DNA of 64,000 bases from Halodesulfurarchaeum sp. (lineage in GTDB: Archaea > Halobacteriota > Halobacteria > Halobacteriales > Halobacteriaceae), in the NCBI GenBank assembly GCA_042216015.1, contig JBDGUI010000013.1, positions 22,838 through 86,837 on the forward strand. The letters run 5' to 3'. Under the pieces are notes generated by a model that had not been told where the DNA came from, did not search any database, and saw nothing but the letters and a program-made list of their open reading frames with translations. The position numbers were made by a program, and so were the translations under genes. Positions 53,612 through 60,492 of this stretch are shown in pieces (the first letter of the stretch is position 1; each line of letters begins with the position of its first letter).

Positions 53612-54343
53612 ATGCAGGACGCGATTCGAATGATCGCCGGTCGATGTACGGTCCGTCACGAGGCAGACGAGCAGTCAGAATCGGAGGGCGACGTGGTCGT
53701 GCTGGTCAAGCCCGACAACACGGTGCTCGTGCACGACGCGTCGGGGTACCGACCGGCCGGGTGGCTGACGCGAGCGGATTCGGTCCAGCTCTCGCTGTCA
53801 GAGCGCTCCTTCGAGCTTCACGCAAACTCGGGCGGGGAGACCCTCCAGGTCACCGGCGAGGACCCCACGGTCGCGGAGCTCCCCGCGACGACGGCAGGCC
53901 CCGTCGTCGGAACCTGTCCGGACTGTGCGGCCACGATGGTCCGGGCCGCCGGGGAGGTCTCCTGTCTGGGCTGTGGGGCCACGTATCCCCTTCCGCGGAA
54001 CGCGGCGGTCACGGACTCGACCTGTGAAACCTGTGACTTGCCAACCATCTCGCTCACGCGGGGAACCGACCTCGAGGTCTGCCTCGACCGGGAGTGTGAC
54101 CCGATCGACGCGGTCGTGCGGGCGACCTTCGAGGGCGAATGGCACTGTCCGACCTGTGGGTCGACCCTGGAGATCGCCCGGGCCAGAACCCTGGGTGCTC
54201 GGTGTCCGACCTGTGAGACCCACTTCCCGATCCCGGACGGGAGGGTCGCCGGCACCTGTGACTGTGGGCTCCCCTGGTTCGAGACCGACCACGGCGGTCG
54301 GTGTCTCGACCCGGCGTGTTCGGCGGCGACGCCGACGCTCTGA
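53612..54343 (+). CDS. NucS-like N-terminal domain plus multiple C4 zinc-ribbon protein
   Basis: VVLVKPDNTVLVHD...PAGW followed by repeated CxxC pairs. Confidence 0.75.
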   Translation: MQDAIRMIAGRCTVRHEADEQSESEGDVVVLVKPDNTVLVHDASGYRPAGWLTRADSVQLSLSERSFELHANSGGETLQVTGEDPTVAELPATTAGPVVGTCPDCAATMVRAAGEVSCLGCGATYPLPRNAAVTDSTCETCDLPTISLTRGTDLEVCLDRECDPIDAVVRATFEGEWHCPTCGSTLEIARARTLGARCPTCETHFPIPDGRVAGTCDCGLPWFETDHGGRCLDPACSAATPTL

Positions 54344-54425
54344 CCCGGTCGCTGGGACTCGGGCCGACTCACTCCAGCCGGGCCCCGAGAGTCACATTGA
54401 TGCGGGCCCCGTCCCAGTGGCCGGT

Positions 54426-55532
54426 ATGGACGGCGCGTTGCGGGATGGAGAGATTCACGTCGGCGGGGACGCGAAGCAGCGCTTTCACGACTCCCGGGGG
54501 TATGGCCGCCCCCTGACGGGCGATTCCATCGCTCTGGCGCCGGTCGAGGCGGCCCACCTCCTCTACCGGGGTGACCTCGACTCGGTCTCGGGGATGGGAT
54601 TCCGGGCGTTCCTCGCCAGCCGGGAGCCGGGCTTTGCCCCCCGCTTTCTGGTCTACGTCGATCTGCGGGACCGGGGATTCTACCTCTCGCCCGCACGCGA
54701 TGGATGGATCCCCGAAGGAATCGACGCCACCGGTGACGGCCGGGACGAGGCTTCCACGGGCGGCGGGTCGGACCGCGATGGAACCACCCCGACGGATCCG
54801 GACTTCGTGGTCTATCCGCGGGGGAAGGGCCCCCAGAACGGTGCGGTCGCCCATCGAGTGACGGTCGTCGGGGAGCGGGCCGAAATCCCGGGAACGGCAC
54901 TCCGTCCAGGGGTCATCGCCGTGGCCGACGAGGAGGGCGACCTGACCTACCTTGAAGTCTCGGCCTTCGATCCGGACGGCGAGACCGAGTTCGAGCCGCG
55001 GGGAACGGTCTCCGGTTCGCTTCTCGACGACCGCGTGCTCGTCTTGGACCCGCCCGGACGTCTCCACGAGGACGGCTTCTACGGCCAGCCGCTCGCGGGC
55101 CGAGGGGCGACACACGACGTCCTCCACCTCTCGCTGCTCGAAGCGGCGGACCTCGCGGCTCGGGGAGTCCTGGGAATCGAATCGGGGGATGGCGTCGAGG
55201 CGATTCTGGACCGTGGCAGGGCGGTCGAGGGGGAGCGCTTCGACCGCCGGCTCCGGGTCTATCGGACCCTCCGGGATCGCCACACCGCTCCCCGGACCGG
55301 GTTCAAGTTCGGGGCGGACTTCCGGGTCTACCGGGCCGTGGAATCCGCCGCCGACCTCGGCCACTCAGCGTTTCTGGTCCGGGTCCGCCGGGCGGATCAC
55401 GTCTTCGGCCCACGCGATCTGGCCCTCGACGTGCGGATGGCCCACGGGGTCAGGAAACGAATGGTTTTTGCGCTCGACGGGGCCAAGGGCGAACAGACAC
55501 GGTGGCTCGCGGTGAGTCGCCTCACCCCCTAA
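54426..55532 (+). CDS. endA: tRNA-intron lyase (splicing endonuclease)
   Basis: VEAAHL, VYVDLRDRG, RTGFKFGADFRVY, RMAHGVRK. Confidence 0.93.
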   Translation: MDGALRDGEIHVGGDAKQRFHDSRGYGRPLTGDSIALAPVEAAHLLYRGDLDSVSGMGFRAFLASREPGFAPRFLVYVDLRDRGFYLSPARDGWIPEGIDATGDGRDEASTGGGSDRDGTTPTDPDFVVYPRGKGPQNGAVAHRVTVVGERAEIPGTALRPGVIAVADEEGDLTYLEVSAFDPDGETEFEPRGTVSGSLLDDRVLVLDPPGRLHEDGFYGQPLAGRGATHDVLHLSLLEAADLAARGVLGIESGDGVEAILDRGRAVEGERFDRRLRVYRTLRDRHTAPRTGFKFGADFRVYRAVESAADLGHSAFLVRVRRADHVFGPRDLALDVRMAHGVRKRMVFALDGAKGEQTRWLAVSRLTP

Positions 55533-55533
55533 C

Positions 55534-57084
55534 ATGACAGAGGACACATCACCCGAGGATCGGGCGGCGGGGGCCGACGAGGTCACCCTGGACCCGTGGG
55601 GCTCCTCGACGATCGCGGATTACCGCTCGCTCTTCGAGGAGTTCGGAATCGAGGCCTTCGAGGCGCTCCTGCCCGAGGTCCCCTCGCCACACTACCTGAT
55701 GCGGCGGGCGATCATCTTCGGCCACCGGGACTACGACCGCGTCGTCGAGGCCATGCGTACGGACCGCCCCTTCGCCGCCCTCTCGGGGTTCATGCCGACG
55801 GGCGACCCGCACATCGGCCACAAGCTGGTCTTCGAGGAACTCATCTGGCACCAGCAGCAGGGCGGGGACACCTACGGCCTCATCGCGGACCTCGAGGCCC
55901 ACAGCGCTCGCGGCCTGTCGTGGGACGAGATCGACGAGCACGCAGAGGACTACCTCCTCTCCCTGCTGGCCTTCGGATTCGATCCCGAGGAGGGGACCCT
56001 CTACCGCCAGTCCGAACGCCGCGAGGTGCAGGACCTGGCTTTCGAGCTGGGCATCGAGGCGAACTTCTCGGAACTCGGGGCCATCTACGGCTTCGACGGC
56101 GAGACCGACATCTCCCACATGCAGAGTGTCGTGACACAGGTCGCGGATATCCTCTACCCGCAACTCGAGGAACCGAAGCCGACGGTGATTCCGGTCGGGC
56201 CGGACCAGGACCCGCACATGCGGCTGTCCCGGGATCTCGCCTCGCGGATGCGGTACTTCGGCGTCACGCGTGCGTACGCGAGTTTCGAGGCGGAGCCTGC
56301 GGAGTTGGCCCACATCGAGCGGGCGTCCGATGCCCTGGCGGACCAGGAAACGGTGCGCTGTGCGGACGCCGCGGACTGGCTCGAGGACGACGGGTCCGAT
56401 CCAGTCGCGGAGGGGGTCGGCGCGGTCGACGACTCGGGCCGCTCCGGTGCCATCGAGAAACTCAGGGCCGCCGGCCAGGAACCGCTCCGGCCGCGGGTCC
56501 GCTTCCTCGACCGGAACGCGACGGCGGAAGCCTTCGAGGGACTCATCGAGGCGATCGAGGGCGAAAAGCGGGTGTACGACGAACACGTCGACGCCTTCGA
56601 CATGGATCGGGCGGACGCCGAGGCACTCGCCCGGGAGGTCGAGGTCGAACACGGCGGCTACGGCTTCGTCCAGCCCTCCTCGATCTACCACCGCTTCATG
56701 ACCGGGCTCACGGGAGGGAAGATGTCCTCCTCGATCCCGGCCAGTCACATCAGCCTCCTCGACGACCCCGAAGAGGGAGCCGAGAAGGTCCGCTCGGCGA
56801 CCACTGGCGGACGCGAAACCGCCGAAGAGCAGCGCGAACTCGGCGGCGAACCCGACAGGTGCCCGGTCTACGAACTCTACGCCTACCTGCTGGCCGGGGA
56901 CGACGACTCCTACGCCGAGCGGGTCTACGCGGAGTGTGAGGGCGGCAAACGCCTGTGTGGCGGGTGCAAGGCCGAGGCCGCAGAGGAGATGGAGACGTTC
57001 CTCGCGGAGCACCAGGAGCGCCGGGAGGAACTCCGTCCGGTCCTCGAGGATCTCGACGTCGCGATCAGCCCCGACCGGATCTGA
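55534..57084 (+). CDS. trpS: Tryptophan--tRNA ligase
   Basis: GFMPTGDPHIGH, PVGPDQDPH, GGKMSSS, CGGCK. Confidence 0.95.
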   Translation: MTEDTSPEDRAAGADEVTLDPWGSSTIADYRSLFEEFGIEAFEALLPEVPSPHYLMRRAIIFGHRDYDRVVEAMRTDRPFAALSGFMPTGDPHIGHKLVFEELIWHQQQGGDTYGLIADLEAHSARGLSWDEIDEHAEDYLLSLLAFGFDPEEGTLYRQSERREVQDLAFELGIEANFSELGAIYGFDGETDISHMQSVVTQVADILYPQLEEPKPTVIPVGPDQDPHMRLSRDLASRMRYFGVTRAYASFEAEPAELAHIERASDALADQETVRCADAADWLEDDGSDPVAEGVGAVDDSGRSGAIEKLRAAGQEPLRPRVRFLDRNATAEAFEGLIEAIEGEKRVYDEHVDAFDMDRADAEALAREVEVEHGGYGFVQPSSIYHRFMTGLTGGKMSSSIPASHISLLDDPEEGAEKVRSATTGGRETAEEQRELGGEPDRCPVYELYAYLLAGDDDSYAERVYAECEGGKRLCGGCKAEAAEEMETFLAEHQERREELRPVLEDLDVAISPDRI

Positions 57085-57153
57085 ACTGGCGACACACCGA
57101 TATGGGGGATTGGGTTCGCAACGCTTTTGTCCGTGCTCGTGGCAGTCGTACTC

Positions 57154-57237
57154 ATGCTTGCCGAATCCGCAAGCGGGATGCACGGTGTCGGCGAAACGCC
57201 CCGCAGCCAGGGATTCGGCTTCTTTTTCGGGGCCTGA
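57154..57237 (+). CDS. Putative Phe-rich leader peptide of pheST (27 aa)
   Basis: MLAESASGMHGVGETPRSQGFGFFFGA*; CTTTTGT box at 57124-57130; ends 34 nt before pheS. Confidence 0.6.
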   Translation: MLAESASGMHGVGETPRSQGFGFFFGA

Positions 57238-57271
57238 CTCGCATCGATCGAACCGACGACTCCAGCAGACG

Positions 57272-58777
57272 ATGAAACTCCCACCAACGCAAGTCGCGGT
57301 GCTCGAAGCGGCGAGCGCCGACGACCCGACCGACGTCGACGAACTCGCGGCACAGCTCGCAGAAAAACCCGAGACGGTCACGGGCGCAGCCTTCGCCCTC
57401 GAGGAGGAGGGCCTGCTCTCGATCACCGAGACCGAGGACATCGAGGTCTCGCTGACCGCGGAGGGCCGCCGCTACGCCGAAAACGGACTCCCGGAGGTTC
57501 GGCTGTACCGGGCCGCGATCGAGGCCGGCGCGGAGACCGAACCCGTCCCGATGGGCGAGGTGATCGCGGCGGCCGGTCTGGACGGCCAGGCCGTCGACAT
57601 CGCGCTCTCGAACTTCGCCCGGAAGGGCTACGGCGAGATCGAGTCGGGCCAACTCACCGCCGCCCCGGAAGTCGACCCCGAGGCGGACGCCGAGGCCCGG
57701 GCCCTCGAGGCGATCGCCGAGGGCGAGGCCGTCGACGAGAACGTCCGGGCGTCCCTCGAATCCCGGAACCTGATCGAGACCACCGAGCGCACCCGACGGG
57801 CCGTGACGCTCACCGAGGACGGGGTGACCGAACTCATGGCCGGCGTCGAGGTCGCAGAGCGGGTCGACCGGCTGCGGCCCGAGCACCTGAGTTCGGGGGA
57901 CTGGGAGGACCTCGCGTTCGCGGCGTACAACGTCGAGGCCGAGGCGGAGGCGCCGACGCCGGGCAAGCGACACGTCCTCCGACAGATGGCAAAGCGGGTG
58001 AAGGAGGTACTCGTGGGCATGGGCTTCGAGGAGATGCAGGGTCCCCACGTCGACGCGGACTTCTGGATCAACGACTGCCTGTTCATGCCCCAGGACCACC
58101 CCGCACGCACCCACTGGGACCGGTTCGCGCTCGCCTCGCCGAGCCGGATCGACGAACTCCCCGAGGAGCTTTTAGAACGGGTCGAGCGGGCCCACCGGGA
58201 GGGCGTTGGAGCGGACGGCGAGGGCTATCACTCGCCGTGGACCCGCGAGTTCGCCTCCGAACTCGCGCTTCGCGGCCACACGACCTCGCTCTCGGCCCGG
58301 TATCTCTCCGGGGAGCAGGTGGGCGACCTCGAGCCGCCCCAGCGCTACTTCAGCGTCGAGAAGGCCTACCGGAACGACACCCTCGATGCGACCCACCTCC
58401 TCGAGTTCTTCCAGATCGAGGGGTGGGTGATGGCCGAGGACCTCACGGTTCGGGACCTGATGGGGACGTTCACGGAGTTCTACAGCCACTTCGGCATCAC
58501 CGATCTCCGCTTCAAGCCGACCTACAACCCCTACACCGAGCCGAGCTTCGAACTCTTCGGTCGCCATCCCGAGACCGACGAACTCATCGAGATCGGCAAC
58601 AGCGGGATCTTCCGCCCGGAGATGCTCGAACCGCTCGGCGTCGAGGCCGACGTGATGGCGTGGGGGCTGGCCCTCGAACGCCTTCTGATGCTCGTCTCCG
58701 GGTTCGAGGACATCCGGGACGTCCACGGGACACTCGCCGATCTCGACTTTCTCCGATCGGTGGAGGTGGAGTACTGA
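57272..58777 (+). CDS. pheS: Phenylalanine--tRNA ligase alpha subunit
   Basis: GLPE, LFMPQDHPAR, LRGHTT, YRNDTLDATHLLEFFQ, YNPYTEPS, AWGLALER. Confidence 0.97.
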   Translation: MKLPPTQVAVLEAASADDPTDVDELAAQLAEKPETVTGAAFALEEEGLLSITETEDIEVSLTAEGRRYAENGLPEVRLYRAAIEAGAETEPVPMGEVIAAAGLDGQAVDIALSNFARKGYGEIESGQLTAAPEVDPEADAEARALEAIAEGEAVDENVRASLESRNLIETTERTRRAVTLTEDGVTELMAGVEVAERVDRLRPEHLSSGDWEDLAFAAYNVEAEAEAPTPGKRHVLRQMAKRVKEVLVGMGFEEMQGPHVDADFWINDCLFMPQDHPARTHWDRFALASPSRIDELPEELLERVERAHREGVGADGEGYHSPWTREFASELALRGHTTSLSARYLSGEQVGDLEPPQRYFSVEKAYRNDTLDATHLLEFFQIEGWVMAEDLTVRDLMGTFTEFYSHFGITDLRFKPTYNPYTEPSFELFGRHPETDELIEIGNSGIFRPEMLEPLGVEADVMAWGLALERLLMLVSGFEDIRDVHGTLADLDFLRSVEVEY

Positions 58778-60492
58778 TGCCGGTCGTCGACGTCGATGCC
58801 GACGAACTCCGGGAGCTGACCGGTCGAACGGAGAAGACTGAGGACGAACTCAAGGACGACCTCTTCACCCTCGGGATCGAGTACGAGGGCGAGACCGAGG
58901 ACGGAAAGATGCGCCTCGAGTTCGAGGCCGACCGGCTCGACCGGCTCTCGATCACCGGCATCGCCCGCTCCCTGTCGTATCATTACGGCGATCTCTCGGG
59001 GATTCACGTGCCGGACACGAACGACCCCGACTGGACGATCGAGGTCGCAGACAGCGTGCCCGACGAGCGCCCGTACGTGACCGGCGCCGTCATCAGGGGG
59101 CTCGACCTCGACGAGACGGACCTCGAGGCGATCATCCAGCTCCAGGAGAAGCTCCACGCCACGATGGGGCGCAAGCGCGCGAAGGGGGCGATCGGGGTCC
59201 ACGATCTGACGATGCTGAAGGGCGGGTCGGCCAGAGGAGGTGCGGAAAACTCCATCCGCTATGCGGGCGTCGAGCCCGATGGCGATCGCTTCGTCCCTCT
59301 CGACAGCGACAGCGCGATGACGCCGGCCGCGGTACTCACCGAGCACTCGACCGGCCGTGAGTACGCCGATCTGGTCGCCGAGTACGACCGCTACCCGGCC
59401 ATCTACGACGACATCGGCCTGTTCAGCTTCCCACCGGTGATCAACGGCGCCCGCACCGAGGTCTCGACGGAATCCCGGGACCTCTTCGTCGAGATGACGG
59501 GGACCGACCAGTGGACCATCGACAGGATGCTCGCGATCATGGTGTATGCCCTCGACGCCCGGGGCGGGCAGGTCGAGGAGGTCCAGATCGCCTATCCCGA
59601 CCGCGAACTGGTCCGCCCGGACCTCTCACTCTCCACGAAGACCCTCTCTCACGACCGGGTCGAGAACACGCTCGGCCTCGATCTCGAACCGGCGCAGGTC
59701 CGCGAGCTGCTCGAGCGATCCGGCCTCGAGGTCGACGACGCGGCATCCGGGACGACTCCCGACAGCTACGAGGTCCTGGTCCCGGCCTATCGGGTCGACG
59801 TGCTCCACCCGGTCGACCTGGTCGACGACATCGGGCGAGCCTACGGCTTCAATCAACTCGTTCCGCGGTACCCGGACGTGAGTACGGTCGGGGCCCGGAC
59901 CGAGGACTCACGCCACGAGGAGGCCGTCCGCGATCTGCTGCTCGGGCTCGGATTCGAAGACCTCCTCAACTTCAATCTCACGAGCCCCGTGGAACTGTTC
60001 GACCGAATGGGTCTCGATCCAGGGGCCGAGGCCCACGGGGCCAGCGACCCGCCGGAACTCGTCGAGTCCTACAGCGAGGACTTCACGGTGTTGCGAACCT
60101 GGGCGCTCCCCTCCCTCGTGCAGGTACTCGAGAACAACACCCATCGCTCGTATCCCCAGCACCTTGCGGAGATCGGATTCGTGGCCGAAATCGACGAGTC
60201 GACCGTGACCAACGTGGCAGAGCGCCGCTCCGTGGCCGCGGTCCTCGCGGAGCCCGAGGCGTCCTACGAGACGGCGAAGGGTCGGTTGCAGGCGCTGGCG
60301 CGCAATTTCGGCGTGGAGCTGGAAACGCCCTCGACCTCCCACCCGAGCTTCATCGAGGGACGCGTGGCGGACGTCGTCCTCGACGGTACCGTCGCCGGCG
60401 TCATCGGCGAACTCGACCCGGCCGTGCTTGAGGAGCACGACCTCGAGGTGCCGGTTTCCGGGTTCGAACTCGACCTCGAAGCCCTTCGTTAG
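58777..60492 (+). CDS. pheT: Phenylalanine--tRNA ligase beta subunit
   Basis: TGATG coupling to pheS; QEKLHATMGRKR, SFPPVING, YRVDVLHPVDLVDD. Confidence 0.96.
   Translation: MPVVDVDADELRELTGRTEKTEDELKDDLFTLGIEYEGETEDGKMRLEFEADRLDRLSITGIARSLSYHYGDLSGIHVPDTNDPDWTIEVADSVPDERPYVTGAVIRGLDLDETDLEAIIQLQEKLHATMGRKRAKGAIGVHDLTMLKGGSARGGAENSIRYAGVEPDGDRFVPLDSDSAMTPAAVLTEHSTGREYADLVAEYDRYPAIYDDIGLFSFPPVINGARTEVSTESRDLFVEMTGTDQWTIDRMLAIMVYALDARGGQVEEVQIAYPDRELVRPDLSLSTKTLSHDRVENTLGLDLEPAQVRELLERSGLEVDDAASGTTPDSYEVLVPAYRVDVLHPVDLVDDIGRAYGFNQLVPRYPDVSTVGARTEDSRHEEAVRDLLLGLGFEDLLNFNLTSPVELFDRMGLDPGAEAHGASDPPELVESYSEDFTVLRTWALPSLVQVLENNTHRSYPQHLAEIGFVAEIDESTVTNVAERRSVAAVLAEPEASYETAKGRLQALARNFGVELETPSTSHPSFIEGRVADVVLDGTVAGVIGELDPAVLEEHDLEVPVSGFELDLEALR

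Follow-up and report, generated by a model that had tools for sequence, protein, structure and literature searches.

A conserved leaderless open reading frame with a terminal cluster of phenylalanine codons upstream of pheST in Halobacteria: a putative leader-peptide sensor

Organization of the pheST Leader

The 187-nucleotide (nt) gap between the genes trpS and pheS in a 64,000-nt stretch of haloarchaeal DNA (the window, on which positions are counted unless another replicon or locus is named, and whose plus strand carries the leader element, trpS, pheS and pheT) contains a short open reading frame (ORF) that ends in a cluster of phenylalanine (Phe) codons. This leader ORF stands directly before pheS (57272..58777) and pheT (58777..60492), which encode the alpha and beta subunits of phenylalanyl-tRNA synthetase (PheRS), and pheS is the gene that the proposal given here takes to be regulated. 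An earlier reading of the DNA letters (the original prediction) had described a Phe-rich leader peptide within an attenuator-like leader, and the present analysis follows up this claim by comparison with related loci, by prediction of RNA structure and with published data on a homologue in Haloferax volcanii. The whole leader element lies within the gap.

The leader ORF (57154..57237) has 27 codons and encodes MLAESASGMHGVGETPRSQGFGFFFGA; it begins with the ATG at 57154 and is closed by the TGA at 57235-57237, and its peptide ends in GFGFFFGA. Phe is encoded at codons 21, 23, 24 and 25 (57214-57216 and 57220-57228) and nowhere else in the ORF, and the translation bears out the claim that the Phe codons are confined to the end, where they make up four of five codons. 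The last three of them, Phe23-Phe24-Phe25, read TTC TTT TTC (57220..57228) and form a U-rich tract with a T5 run at 57223-57227; this tract, distinguished by its codon periodicity, is the proposed sensor and also the proposed termination or cleavage signal. A promoter-like sequence, AACGCTTTTG, is located 28 nt upstream of the ATG at 57154; the CTTTTGT at 57124-57130 lies within the promoter-like B recognition element (BRE)/TATA stretch TTCGCAACGCTTTTGT (57117..57130), whose T-run is centred 28 nt 5' of the same ATG, and the ORF is therefore described as leaderless.

The spacer from the stop codon to the pheS ATG (57238..57271) has 34 nt and carries neither a TATA-like box nor a Shine-Dalgarno-like sequence. 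Because no promoter-like box stands between the leader ORF and pheS, transcription of pheST in this genus must cross the leader ORF. The promoter-like site, the start codon, the number of codons and the length of the gap to pheS, as given in the original prediction, all checked out, and so did the lack of a T/A box at the usual distance before pheS. A scan of 56800-57600 for bacterial-type terminators and promoters, which does not model archaeal signals, found nothing.

The upstream neighbour trpS (55534..57084), encoding tryptophanyl-tRNA synthetase (Pfam tRNA-synt_1b, E 3e-43), lies outside the element, and in the gene order it is preceded by a tRNA-intron endonuclease gene (53925-55532), whose ORF ends at 55532, trpS starting at 55534. 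PheS matches Pfam tRNA-synt_2d (E 1.4e-79) and PheT the Pfam tRNA_synthFbeta, B5 and B1 domains. The pheS stop codon TGA (58775-58777) shares one base with the pheT ATG (58777-58779), a layout typical of translational coupling, and a convergent dihydroorotate dehydrogenase gene comes next after pheT. PheS of the window shares 91% identity with the protein of a Halodesulfurarchaeum sp. and 84% with that of H. formicicum; the window is from a haloarchaeon of the genus Halodesulfurarchaeum.

Conservation in Haloarchaeal pheS Loci

The survey covered 80 pheS loci from other species, which are the best 80 of 406 confirmed relatives, and the window, i.e., 81 loci in total. All of the 80 are haloarchaeal by name except L062, which has a Candidatus Pacearchaeota label; this locus (contig PWGL01000012.1) carries a haloarchaeal-type pheS with 70% identity and a leader ORF ending in GFGFFFAR, and it is probably a mis-binned contig. 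With a strict motif (GFxFF(F) or GFFF, on the plus strand and at most 400 nt upstream of pheS), the Phe cluster was found in 57 of the 81 pheS leaders, while elsewhere in these loci 1,014,620 residues of six-frame translation gave 2 matches. The leader ORF is more than chance, since 57 leaders stand against 2 matches in about 1.01 million residues. In the six-frame translation of the 64-kilobase window, the single match is at the leader ORF, and among the 12 candidates of a scan of the window for small ORFs with a TATA box at -34 to -22 before an ATG, only the leader ORF has a Phe cluster.

A looser rule, requiring an ORF of 24-31 codons with at least two Phe in its last 11 positions, was met by 67 sequences. 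When L035 and L076, whose ORFs are lengthened in frame, are added, homologous leaderless upstream ORFs (uORFs) of 24-48 codons with a C-terminal Phe cluster are present in 69 of the 81 loci, and the Phe cluster before a stop, which the original prediction had proposed to look for across Halobacteria, is thus widespread. The L035 uORF has 48 codons, starts 282 nt upstream of pheS and contains a tandem duplication repeating RERRTCSGV, and the L076 uORF has 46 codons and starts 278 nt upstream; in both, the in-frame insertion leaves the ORF open and the ATG, the helix arms described below and the Phe cluster are retained. Promoter and start are retained with a decayed Phe cluster in three loci (L028, L039 and L060), and nine of the 81 (L011, L019, L020, L030, L031, L038, L051, L061 and L074) have no such ORF in the available upstream sequence. 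Four Phe are found among the last 12 residues of 42 of the 67 uORFs and three Phe in 19.

In 59 of the 67 sequences the T-run is centred 28 nt before the start codon of the uORF; the distance is 27 nt in five others and 26 nt in one. Judged from sequence, the 28-nt spacing is that expected for a transcription start at the ATG. The end of trpS is at most 250 nt upstream in 20 of the 67 uORF loci, 278-2016 nt upstream in 23, and outside the available upstream sequence in 24. Since the uORF is retained where trpS is distant or absent, it is tied to pheS and not to trpS.

Selection on the Phenylalanine Codons

To avoid circularity, loci were also chosen by the RNA motif GGRTTCG[GAC] alone (62 loci), with no use of the Phe codons that follow. 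The ATGs located 40-100 nt upstream of this motif share the Phe frame in 59 cases and fall in the other two frames in 2 cases and 1 case, and a stop codon at most 10 codons downstream is found in the Phe frame of 55 of the 62 loci vs 5 in each of the other frames. In the three consecutive Phe codons, T occupies positions 1 and 2 in 57-66 of the 67 uORFs and position 3 is solely C or T in 65-66, a pattern that reads as the signature of protein-coding constraint. The last Phe stands 1-3 residues before the stop in 62 of the 67, and the middle of the peptide is not conserved in the aligned leaders. The leaderless ORF of the original prediction is therefore real and conserved, with its Phe cluster held in the coding frame; the T-tract stays in the Phe frame in relatives, and a start is present at 57154.

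No Pfam family was found for the window leader peptide, and no NCBIfam family for six uORF peptides at E up to 10, PheM sequence families included. Ten uORF peptides were absent, by exact look-up, from a collection of 15 billion proteins, which means that the ORF is unannotated in those genomes.

The Homologue in Haloferax volcanii

A uORF of 26 amino acids in the long 5' untranslated region (5'-UTR) of H. volcanii pheS (HVO_2948) is described by Babski 2016 (PMC4983044). Table S1 of that paper maps a transcription start site (TSS) 212 nt before pheS, where the promoter motif is the same and the TATA box has its centre at -28, and Table 2 has no second TSS at this gene. By arithmetic, an 81-nt uORF leaves about 131 of the 212 nt for the spacer, which is as long as that of H. 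larsenii, and the TSS is thus at the uORF AUG. In Table S5D of Hadjeras 2023 (PMC10117724) the ORF appears as sORFribo5, leaderless and supported by ribosome profiling (Ribo-seq) and DeepRibo, under the new name HVO_2948A, and its peptide ends in DGFGVFFLTA. The main text of that paper names neither HVO_2948A nor sORFribo5 and makes the general remark that small ORFs (sORFs) in 5'-UTRs recall uORFs or leader peptide genes. HVO_2948A is already known as a catalogue entry, and those passages do not take up how rich it is in Phe, how widely it is conserved or how it relates to PheRS.

HVO_2948A is a direct homologue of the window leader ORF. Both are leaderless, have the TATA box at -28, lie upstream of pheS, carry the two helix arms (in HVO_2948A, 5' arm TCCGAACCC and 3' arm GGGTTCGGA) and end in a C-terminal Phe cluster, which in HVO_2948A is GFGVFF. 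They differ in the number of Phe, three in HVO_2948A vs four in the window, and in the spacer, about 131 nt vs 34 nt; the Haloferax relatives L040 and L055 also have a downstream structured element, described below, which the window genus lacks. The window ORF has the features of the HVO_2948A type, being leaderless, placed 28 nt after the T-run and directly before pheS, with a 5' arm CCGAAYCC paired with GGRTTCGG, followed by the Phe codons and a stop a few codons on. The claim of leaderless initiation is thus backed, in the homologue, by a TSS at the AUG, a TATA box at -28 and Ribo-seq data. For the window ORF, translation is predicted from the conserved ATG, frame and stop, the Ribo-seq support belonging to the H. 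volcanii homologue only.

The same Table S5D (Hadjeras 2023, PMC10117724) contains a Ribo-seq-supported uORF of 23 amino acids with the sequence W-R-W in the 5'-UTR of HVO_A0127, a tryptophan-tRNA ligase gene on the H. volcanii replicon pHV4. A Trp-rich uORF before the chromosomal trpS was found in none of the 22 survey loci with enough upstream sequence.

RNA Structure of the Leader

RNAalifold gave one consensus helix for the 67 aligned leaders, P1, in which transcript nt 8-16 pair with the Gly-Phe-Gly codons. In the window, the consensus and the pair counts place its 5' arm, GCCGAATCC, in codons 3-5 (57160..57168) and its 3' arm, GGATTCGGC, in the codons of Gly20-Phe21-Gly22 (57211..57219), adjoining the Phe/U-tract. 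When the ten pairs of P1 were counted, 87.5% of the cells were paired, a value reached by none of 500 shuffles; 49 cells are changed on both sides, and pairing falls to 63% or 45% when the partner is shifted by one column. At columns 13/77, i.e., the first base of codon 5 and the third base of the Gly20 codon, the pairs are CG in 34 sequences, UA in 20, UG in 12 and other in 1. Since here a synonymous third base of a Gly codon covaries with a distant base, there is no protein-level explanation for that site. Compensatory double changes occur in L010, L018, L052 and L072: L010 has GAA/UUC replaced by AGA/UCU with the loss of one Phe, and L018 pairs GAC with GUC. In L033 the 5' arm is retained in a different reading frame, and in L028 the helix is retained with a Phe count of one. 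Comparison of the sequences thus supports P1 by covariation. The Glu codon at position 4 is GAA in 55 sequences and GAG in 2, GAA making up 26% of the Glu codons in pheS. The conservation of the peptide N-terminus (M-A-S/P-E-P/S) appears to reflect RNA pairing, because compensations of the whole arm occur and the arm of L033 is out of frame.

The three helices that the original prediction had put forward exist as written, namely GCTTGC (57156-57161) with GCAAGC (57169-57174), GCCGAATCC with GGATTCGGC, and GCCCCG (57198-57203) with CGGGGC (57228-57233). The second of them, with 9 base pairs, covaries among relatives and is P1; the first and the third are confined to the genus and show no compensatory change. 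Rfam searches of the window leader with E up to 10 gave only chance-level matches and no T-box; none reached the gathering score in 20 related loci, and none was meaningful in two related leaders with E up to 10.

A conserved structured element is found 1-10 nt after the uORF stop in 54 loci (e.g., L006:2401-2443, L017 and L032). It has a covarying outer helix CGGnCGG/CCGnCCG, of which one pair is GC in 31 loci, CG in 5, AU in 4 and GU in 4, an invariant GGA and GAAAC opposed across an internal loop, and a variable hairpin. As a regular expression, its pattern gives 52 matches in pheS leaders vs 14 elsewhere in about 1 megabase searched on both strands, and no Rfam family corresponds to it. 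A kink-turn or a T-box-like contact with tRNA was considered for the GGA/GAAA loop and rejected, since its strands are symmetric and it is not known to match such motifs, and the element was left unnamed.

Most genera also have a BRE/TATA-like motif with the consensus GAACCGnTAACTGA 24-45 nt before the pheS ATG (e.g., L017, L019 and L074); a strict pattern detects it in 43 of the 81 loci, and more are visible by eye. It resembles the uORF promoter, occurs also in loci without a uORF, and may act either as a further promoter or as a signal at the RNA level. The differential RNA sequencing of H. volcanii lists no TSS at pheS itself (Babski 2016, PMC4983044), despite the presence of a motif of this type in most loci. 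In the window, GAACCGACGACTCC at 57254-57267 is a remnant only of this motif. The window and its five closest relatives have neither the downstream element nor the GAACCGnTAACTGA motif, and their spacers are 34-43 nt long; we regard the window genus as a minimal form of the leader, consisting of promoter, leader ORF, P1, Phe/U-tract and pheS.

The U-rich Tract

TTT accounts for 22.7% of the Phe codons in the uORFs vs 5.6% in the adjacent pheS genes, which points to an extra pressure toward U at the Phe wobble position in the uORFs. The longest T-run is at least 5 in 37 of the 67 sequences, exactly 4 in 7 and at most 3 in 23; a T5 run is present in all six sequences of the window genus and its sister L006. 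The U-tract of the original prediction is thus kept in the window genus, and in 23 of the 67 relatives the longest run is three or less. In all 67 sequences the T-runs of the spacer between uORF and pheS are at most 3 nt long, and any archaeal termination signal in the leader would therefore be the Phe cluster. Stretches of T are an intergenic termination motif in H. volcanii (Berkemer 2020), and the KH domains of the termination factor aCPSF1 recognise terminator U-tracts, as stated in a 2026 review (PMC13675443).

Proposed Mechanism and Alternative Explanations

We consider the leader to be probably a cis-acting sensor of Phe-tRNA charging that controls pheST. The reading as a leader peptide is well supported by the comparison of loci and by the published TSS and Ribo-seq data on the homologue, and a mechanism of attenuation is plausible. 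The account that follows is an inferred one as regards the stall, the direction in which pheST is regulated and the output. Transcription would start at or next to the A of the ATG at 57154, 28 nt after the TATA-like box, to give a leaderless RNA, and a ribosome would load on the 5' AUG and read 27 codons, in which four of codons 21-25 specify Phe. When Phe-tRNA is plentiful, the ribosome would pass the Phe codons, reach the stop two codons on and depart, and P1 could then arise by pairing of GCCGAAUCC (RNA nt 7-15) with GGAUUCGGC, the Gly-Phe-Gly codons. With P1 formed, most of the 5' end would be hidden from new ribosomes and the U-rich Phe tract would lie bare directly behind the helix, open to termination or cleavage. 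The candidate output is intrinsic oligo-U termination, or recognition of the U-tract by aCPSF1/FttA, and fewer full-length pheST messages would result. When Phe-tRNA is scarce, the ribosome would stall on the Phe codons, its footprint extending over the U-tract and the 3' P1 arm. With the helix blocked and the tract masked, more message would extend into pheST and yield more PheRS.

That the output of a Phe-sensing leader is termination or cleavage at the U-tract is a reading we hold with some reserve, giving it slightly less than an even chance, and several observations weigh against it. The 23 Phe clusters without a T-run longer than 3 (e.g., TTCTTCTTC) mean that a classic oligo-U terminator is not universal. 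The 3'-end supplement for H. volcanii, whose listing is possibly incomplete, has no end in 2783131-2783343, i.e., in the pheS leader, and a 3' end would be expected there if an attenuator frequently stopped transcription in rich medium; 3'-end mapping may lose short RNAs. This one dataset speaks against frequent termination, and of the mechanism in the original prediction the conserved and translated Phe leader stands, while the expected end in the leader is missing from the supplement. PheRS is essential and depends on read-through at this site, and termination must hence be leaky. There is also a problem of timing, because the polymerase must pass the Phe codons before the ribosome reads them: with the polymerase already past these codons, hairpin-plus-U termination could not be blocked by a stall there, and since a stall at the same codons comes too late, termination would have to be delayed and linked to cleavage, or the RNA cleaved post-transcriptionally, for the model to work. 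Most relatives have the downstream structured element, for which the model has no use. The minimum-free-energy fold of the window leader omits P1 and uses the GCTTGC/GCAAGC and GCCCCG/CGGGGC helices, and this leader folds no more stably than shuffled sequences (z = 0.83 and -0.37), so that the structural case rests on comparison and not on energy. Finally, no conserved alternative helix of the antiterminator type was found in the aligned leaders.

The only 3' end listed nearby in H. volcanii is at 2783352 on the minus strand, 9 nt upstream of the uORF start site. It is placed just past the T-run of the TATA box, and the promoter T-run may double as a terminator of the upstream gene. A chain of alternative helices, from the codons after the Phe cluster to the downstream element and beyond, could be drawn by eye in L008 and L017 and could not in L009 and L066, and it is not claimed here.

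The sensor might also be coupled to translation, a stall remodelling the leader or affecting re-initiation to give more starts at the pheS AUG with the transcript unchanged. All the evidence for a translated uORF conserved in the Phe frame applies equally to this variant, the mycobacterial leaderless poly-Cys sORFs (10.1101/834739) provide a precedent, and it fits both the missing premature 3' end in the H. volcanii map and the Phe clusters without a T-run. The window spacer is merely 34 nt, and from the inferred geometry the element located 1-10 nt after the stop in relatives would be unwound by a terminating ribosome and not by a stalled one. However, when a stall was simulated by blocking a 28-nt footprint, the thermodynamically predicted probability that the pheS start is unpaired had a median change of 0.0 in 67 leaders, with changes above 0.1 upward in 8 and downward in 3. 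The pheS start window is about half unpaired already, and no conserved base pairs were found to link the uORF region with the pheS start. Simple re-initiation is unlikely, given that the spacers measure 34 to 202 nt and hold stable hairpins, and the fourfold excess of TTT is left unexplained unless wobble decoding is slow. Because the simulated stall had no consistent effect on the pheS start, we rank this translational output lower and regard it as unlikely.

We find it equally unlikely that Phe is not sensed at all and that the leader is a structured RNA (P1, together with the downstream element in relatives) for protein binding or RNA stability, or that the ORF yields a small peptide with a hydrophobic tail that acts in trans, the Phe codons being a by-product of a U-rich signal in the RNA or of what the peptide does. 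P1 is indeed selected at the RNA level even at a cost to the peptide (L010, L033 and L028), the second structured element with its invariant GGA...GAAAC is present in 54 loci, and the H. volcanii ORF is catalogued simply as a small protein. Yet position 3 of the Phe codons is restricted to C or T, which indicates selection on the amino acid or codon beyond U content, and ATG, frame and nearby stop are retained as well. The peptide is not conserved in its middle part, which is also the case in leader peptides, it matches no Pfam or NCBIfam family, and the element is attached to the one gene whose product charges tRNA-Phe. A far more sceptical explanation, which the original prediction had itself raised, is that the T-tract serves as the trpS terminator only and the ORF is a chance open frame. 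The tract is 136 nt after the trpS stop, and GC-rich DNA often has open frames: in 53-58 of the 62 loci the three frames are open over the 20 codons that precede the 3' arm. But trpS is within 250 nt in only 20 of the 67 uORF loci and lies 278-2016 nt away or outside the available sequence in the other 23 and 24, a conserved promoter of its own stands at a fixed distance before the uORF, the motif is concentrated in pheS leaders (57 of 81 vs 2 elsewhere), and the homologue HVO_2948A is translated. This explanation is highly improbable.

Relation to Known Systems

Leader-peptide attenuation is a textbook mechanism of bacteria that depends on coupled transcription and translation. In E. coli, pheST is preceded by the leader peptide gene pheM, rich in Phe codons, and an attenuator, and a stall at low Phe-tRNA raises PheRS. 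The window leader shares features with a leader attenuator in that a short ORF with a cluster of cognate Phe codons lies in the pheS leader and no promoter-like box separates it from the gene. As in E. coli, the short Phe-rich ORF stands directly before pheS-pheT, and the proposed logic is the same. The two differ in that there is no sequence relationship (no NCBIfam match), the RNA polymerase and the termination machinery are archaeal, the mRNA is leaderless, the Phe codons are placed at the extreme end of the ORF, where they also constitute the U-tract, and a single supported long-range helix takes the place of a set of 1:2, 2:3 and 3:4 hairpins.

T-box riboswitches, located upstream of bacterial synthetase genes, do the same job of coupling synthetase expression to tRNA charging; unlike the window leader, which has no Rfam match, they read the tRNA directly and contain no ORF. 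For the masking of the U-tract from aCPSF1/FttA, the nearest analogy is tnaC of E. coli, in which a ribosome held at the end of the leader ORF hides an adjacent RNA site from Rho. In contrast to the present proposal, tnaC senses free tryptophan via the nascent peptide and not tRNA charging, and the factor involved, Rho, is a helicase. Nuclease activity is the property of aCPSF1/FttA (PMC13675443). In mycobacteria, ribosome pausing on a leaderless poly-Cys sORF acts as the sensor and a downstream ribosome-binding site is unmasked (Canestrari et al. 2020, 10.1101/834739). This sORF shares with the window ORF the position as leaderless first cistron, a run of cognate codons and a downstream operon, and is distinguished by being bacterial and by its target, which is cysteine metabolism and not an aminoacyl-tRNA synthetase; the in-silico equivalent of such start unmasking was without effect in the 67 leaders.

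A full-text literature search, which covered few subscription journals, found no description of a Phe-rich leader or attenuator for archaeal pheS and no demonstrated leader-peptide attenuation in Archaea. The Phe-leader reading thus has no earlier report in that search, although the ORF itself is catalogued as HVO_2948A. What is new is the reading of the pheS uORF as a probable Phe-sensing leader, an archaeal variant of bacterial leader-peptide control with a candidate mechanism. It is possible, and we put this forward tentatively, with less confidence than the output at the U-tract, that it is the first ribosome-mediated amino-acid sensor in Archaea, class-wide in Halobacteria, in which the Phe codons are both sensor and U-rich signal and a stalled ribosome, not an antiterminator hairpin, protects the signal and holds the 5'-to-3' helix open, so that PheRS synthesis would be coupled to the charging of tRNA-Phe.

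Significance

If the proposal is true, Archaea would sense metabolic state by where a ribosome stands on an mRNA that is nascent or young, and the leader would be a natural test bed for the interplay between translation and archaeal termination (oligo-U and aCPSF1/FttA). Archaeal Ribo-seq has yielded many small ORFs that lack an explanation, and one of them would thereby gain a function. Since a homologue with mapped start site and translation is present in the genetically tractable H. volcanii, the proposal is directly testable. The W-R-W uORF before the H. volcanii Trp-tRNA ligase gene hints that uORFs with cognate codons may exist for other synthetases.

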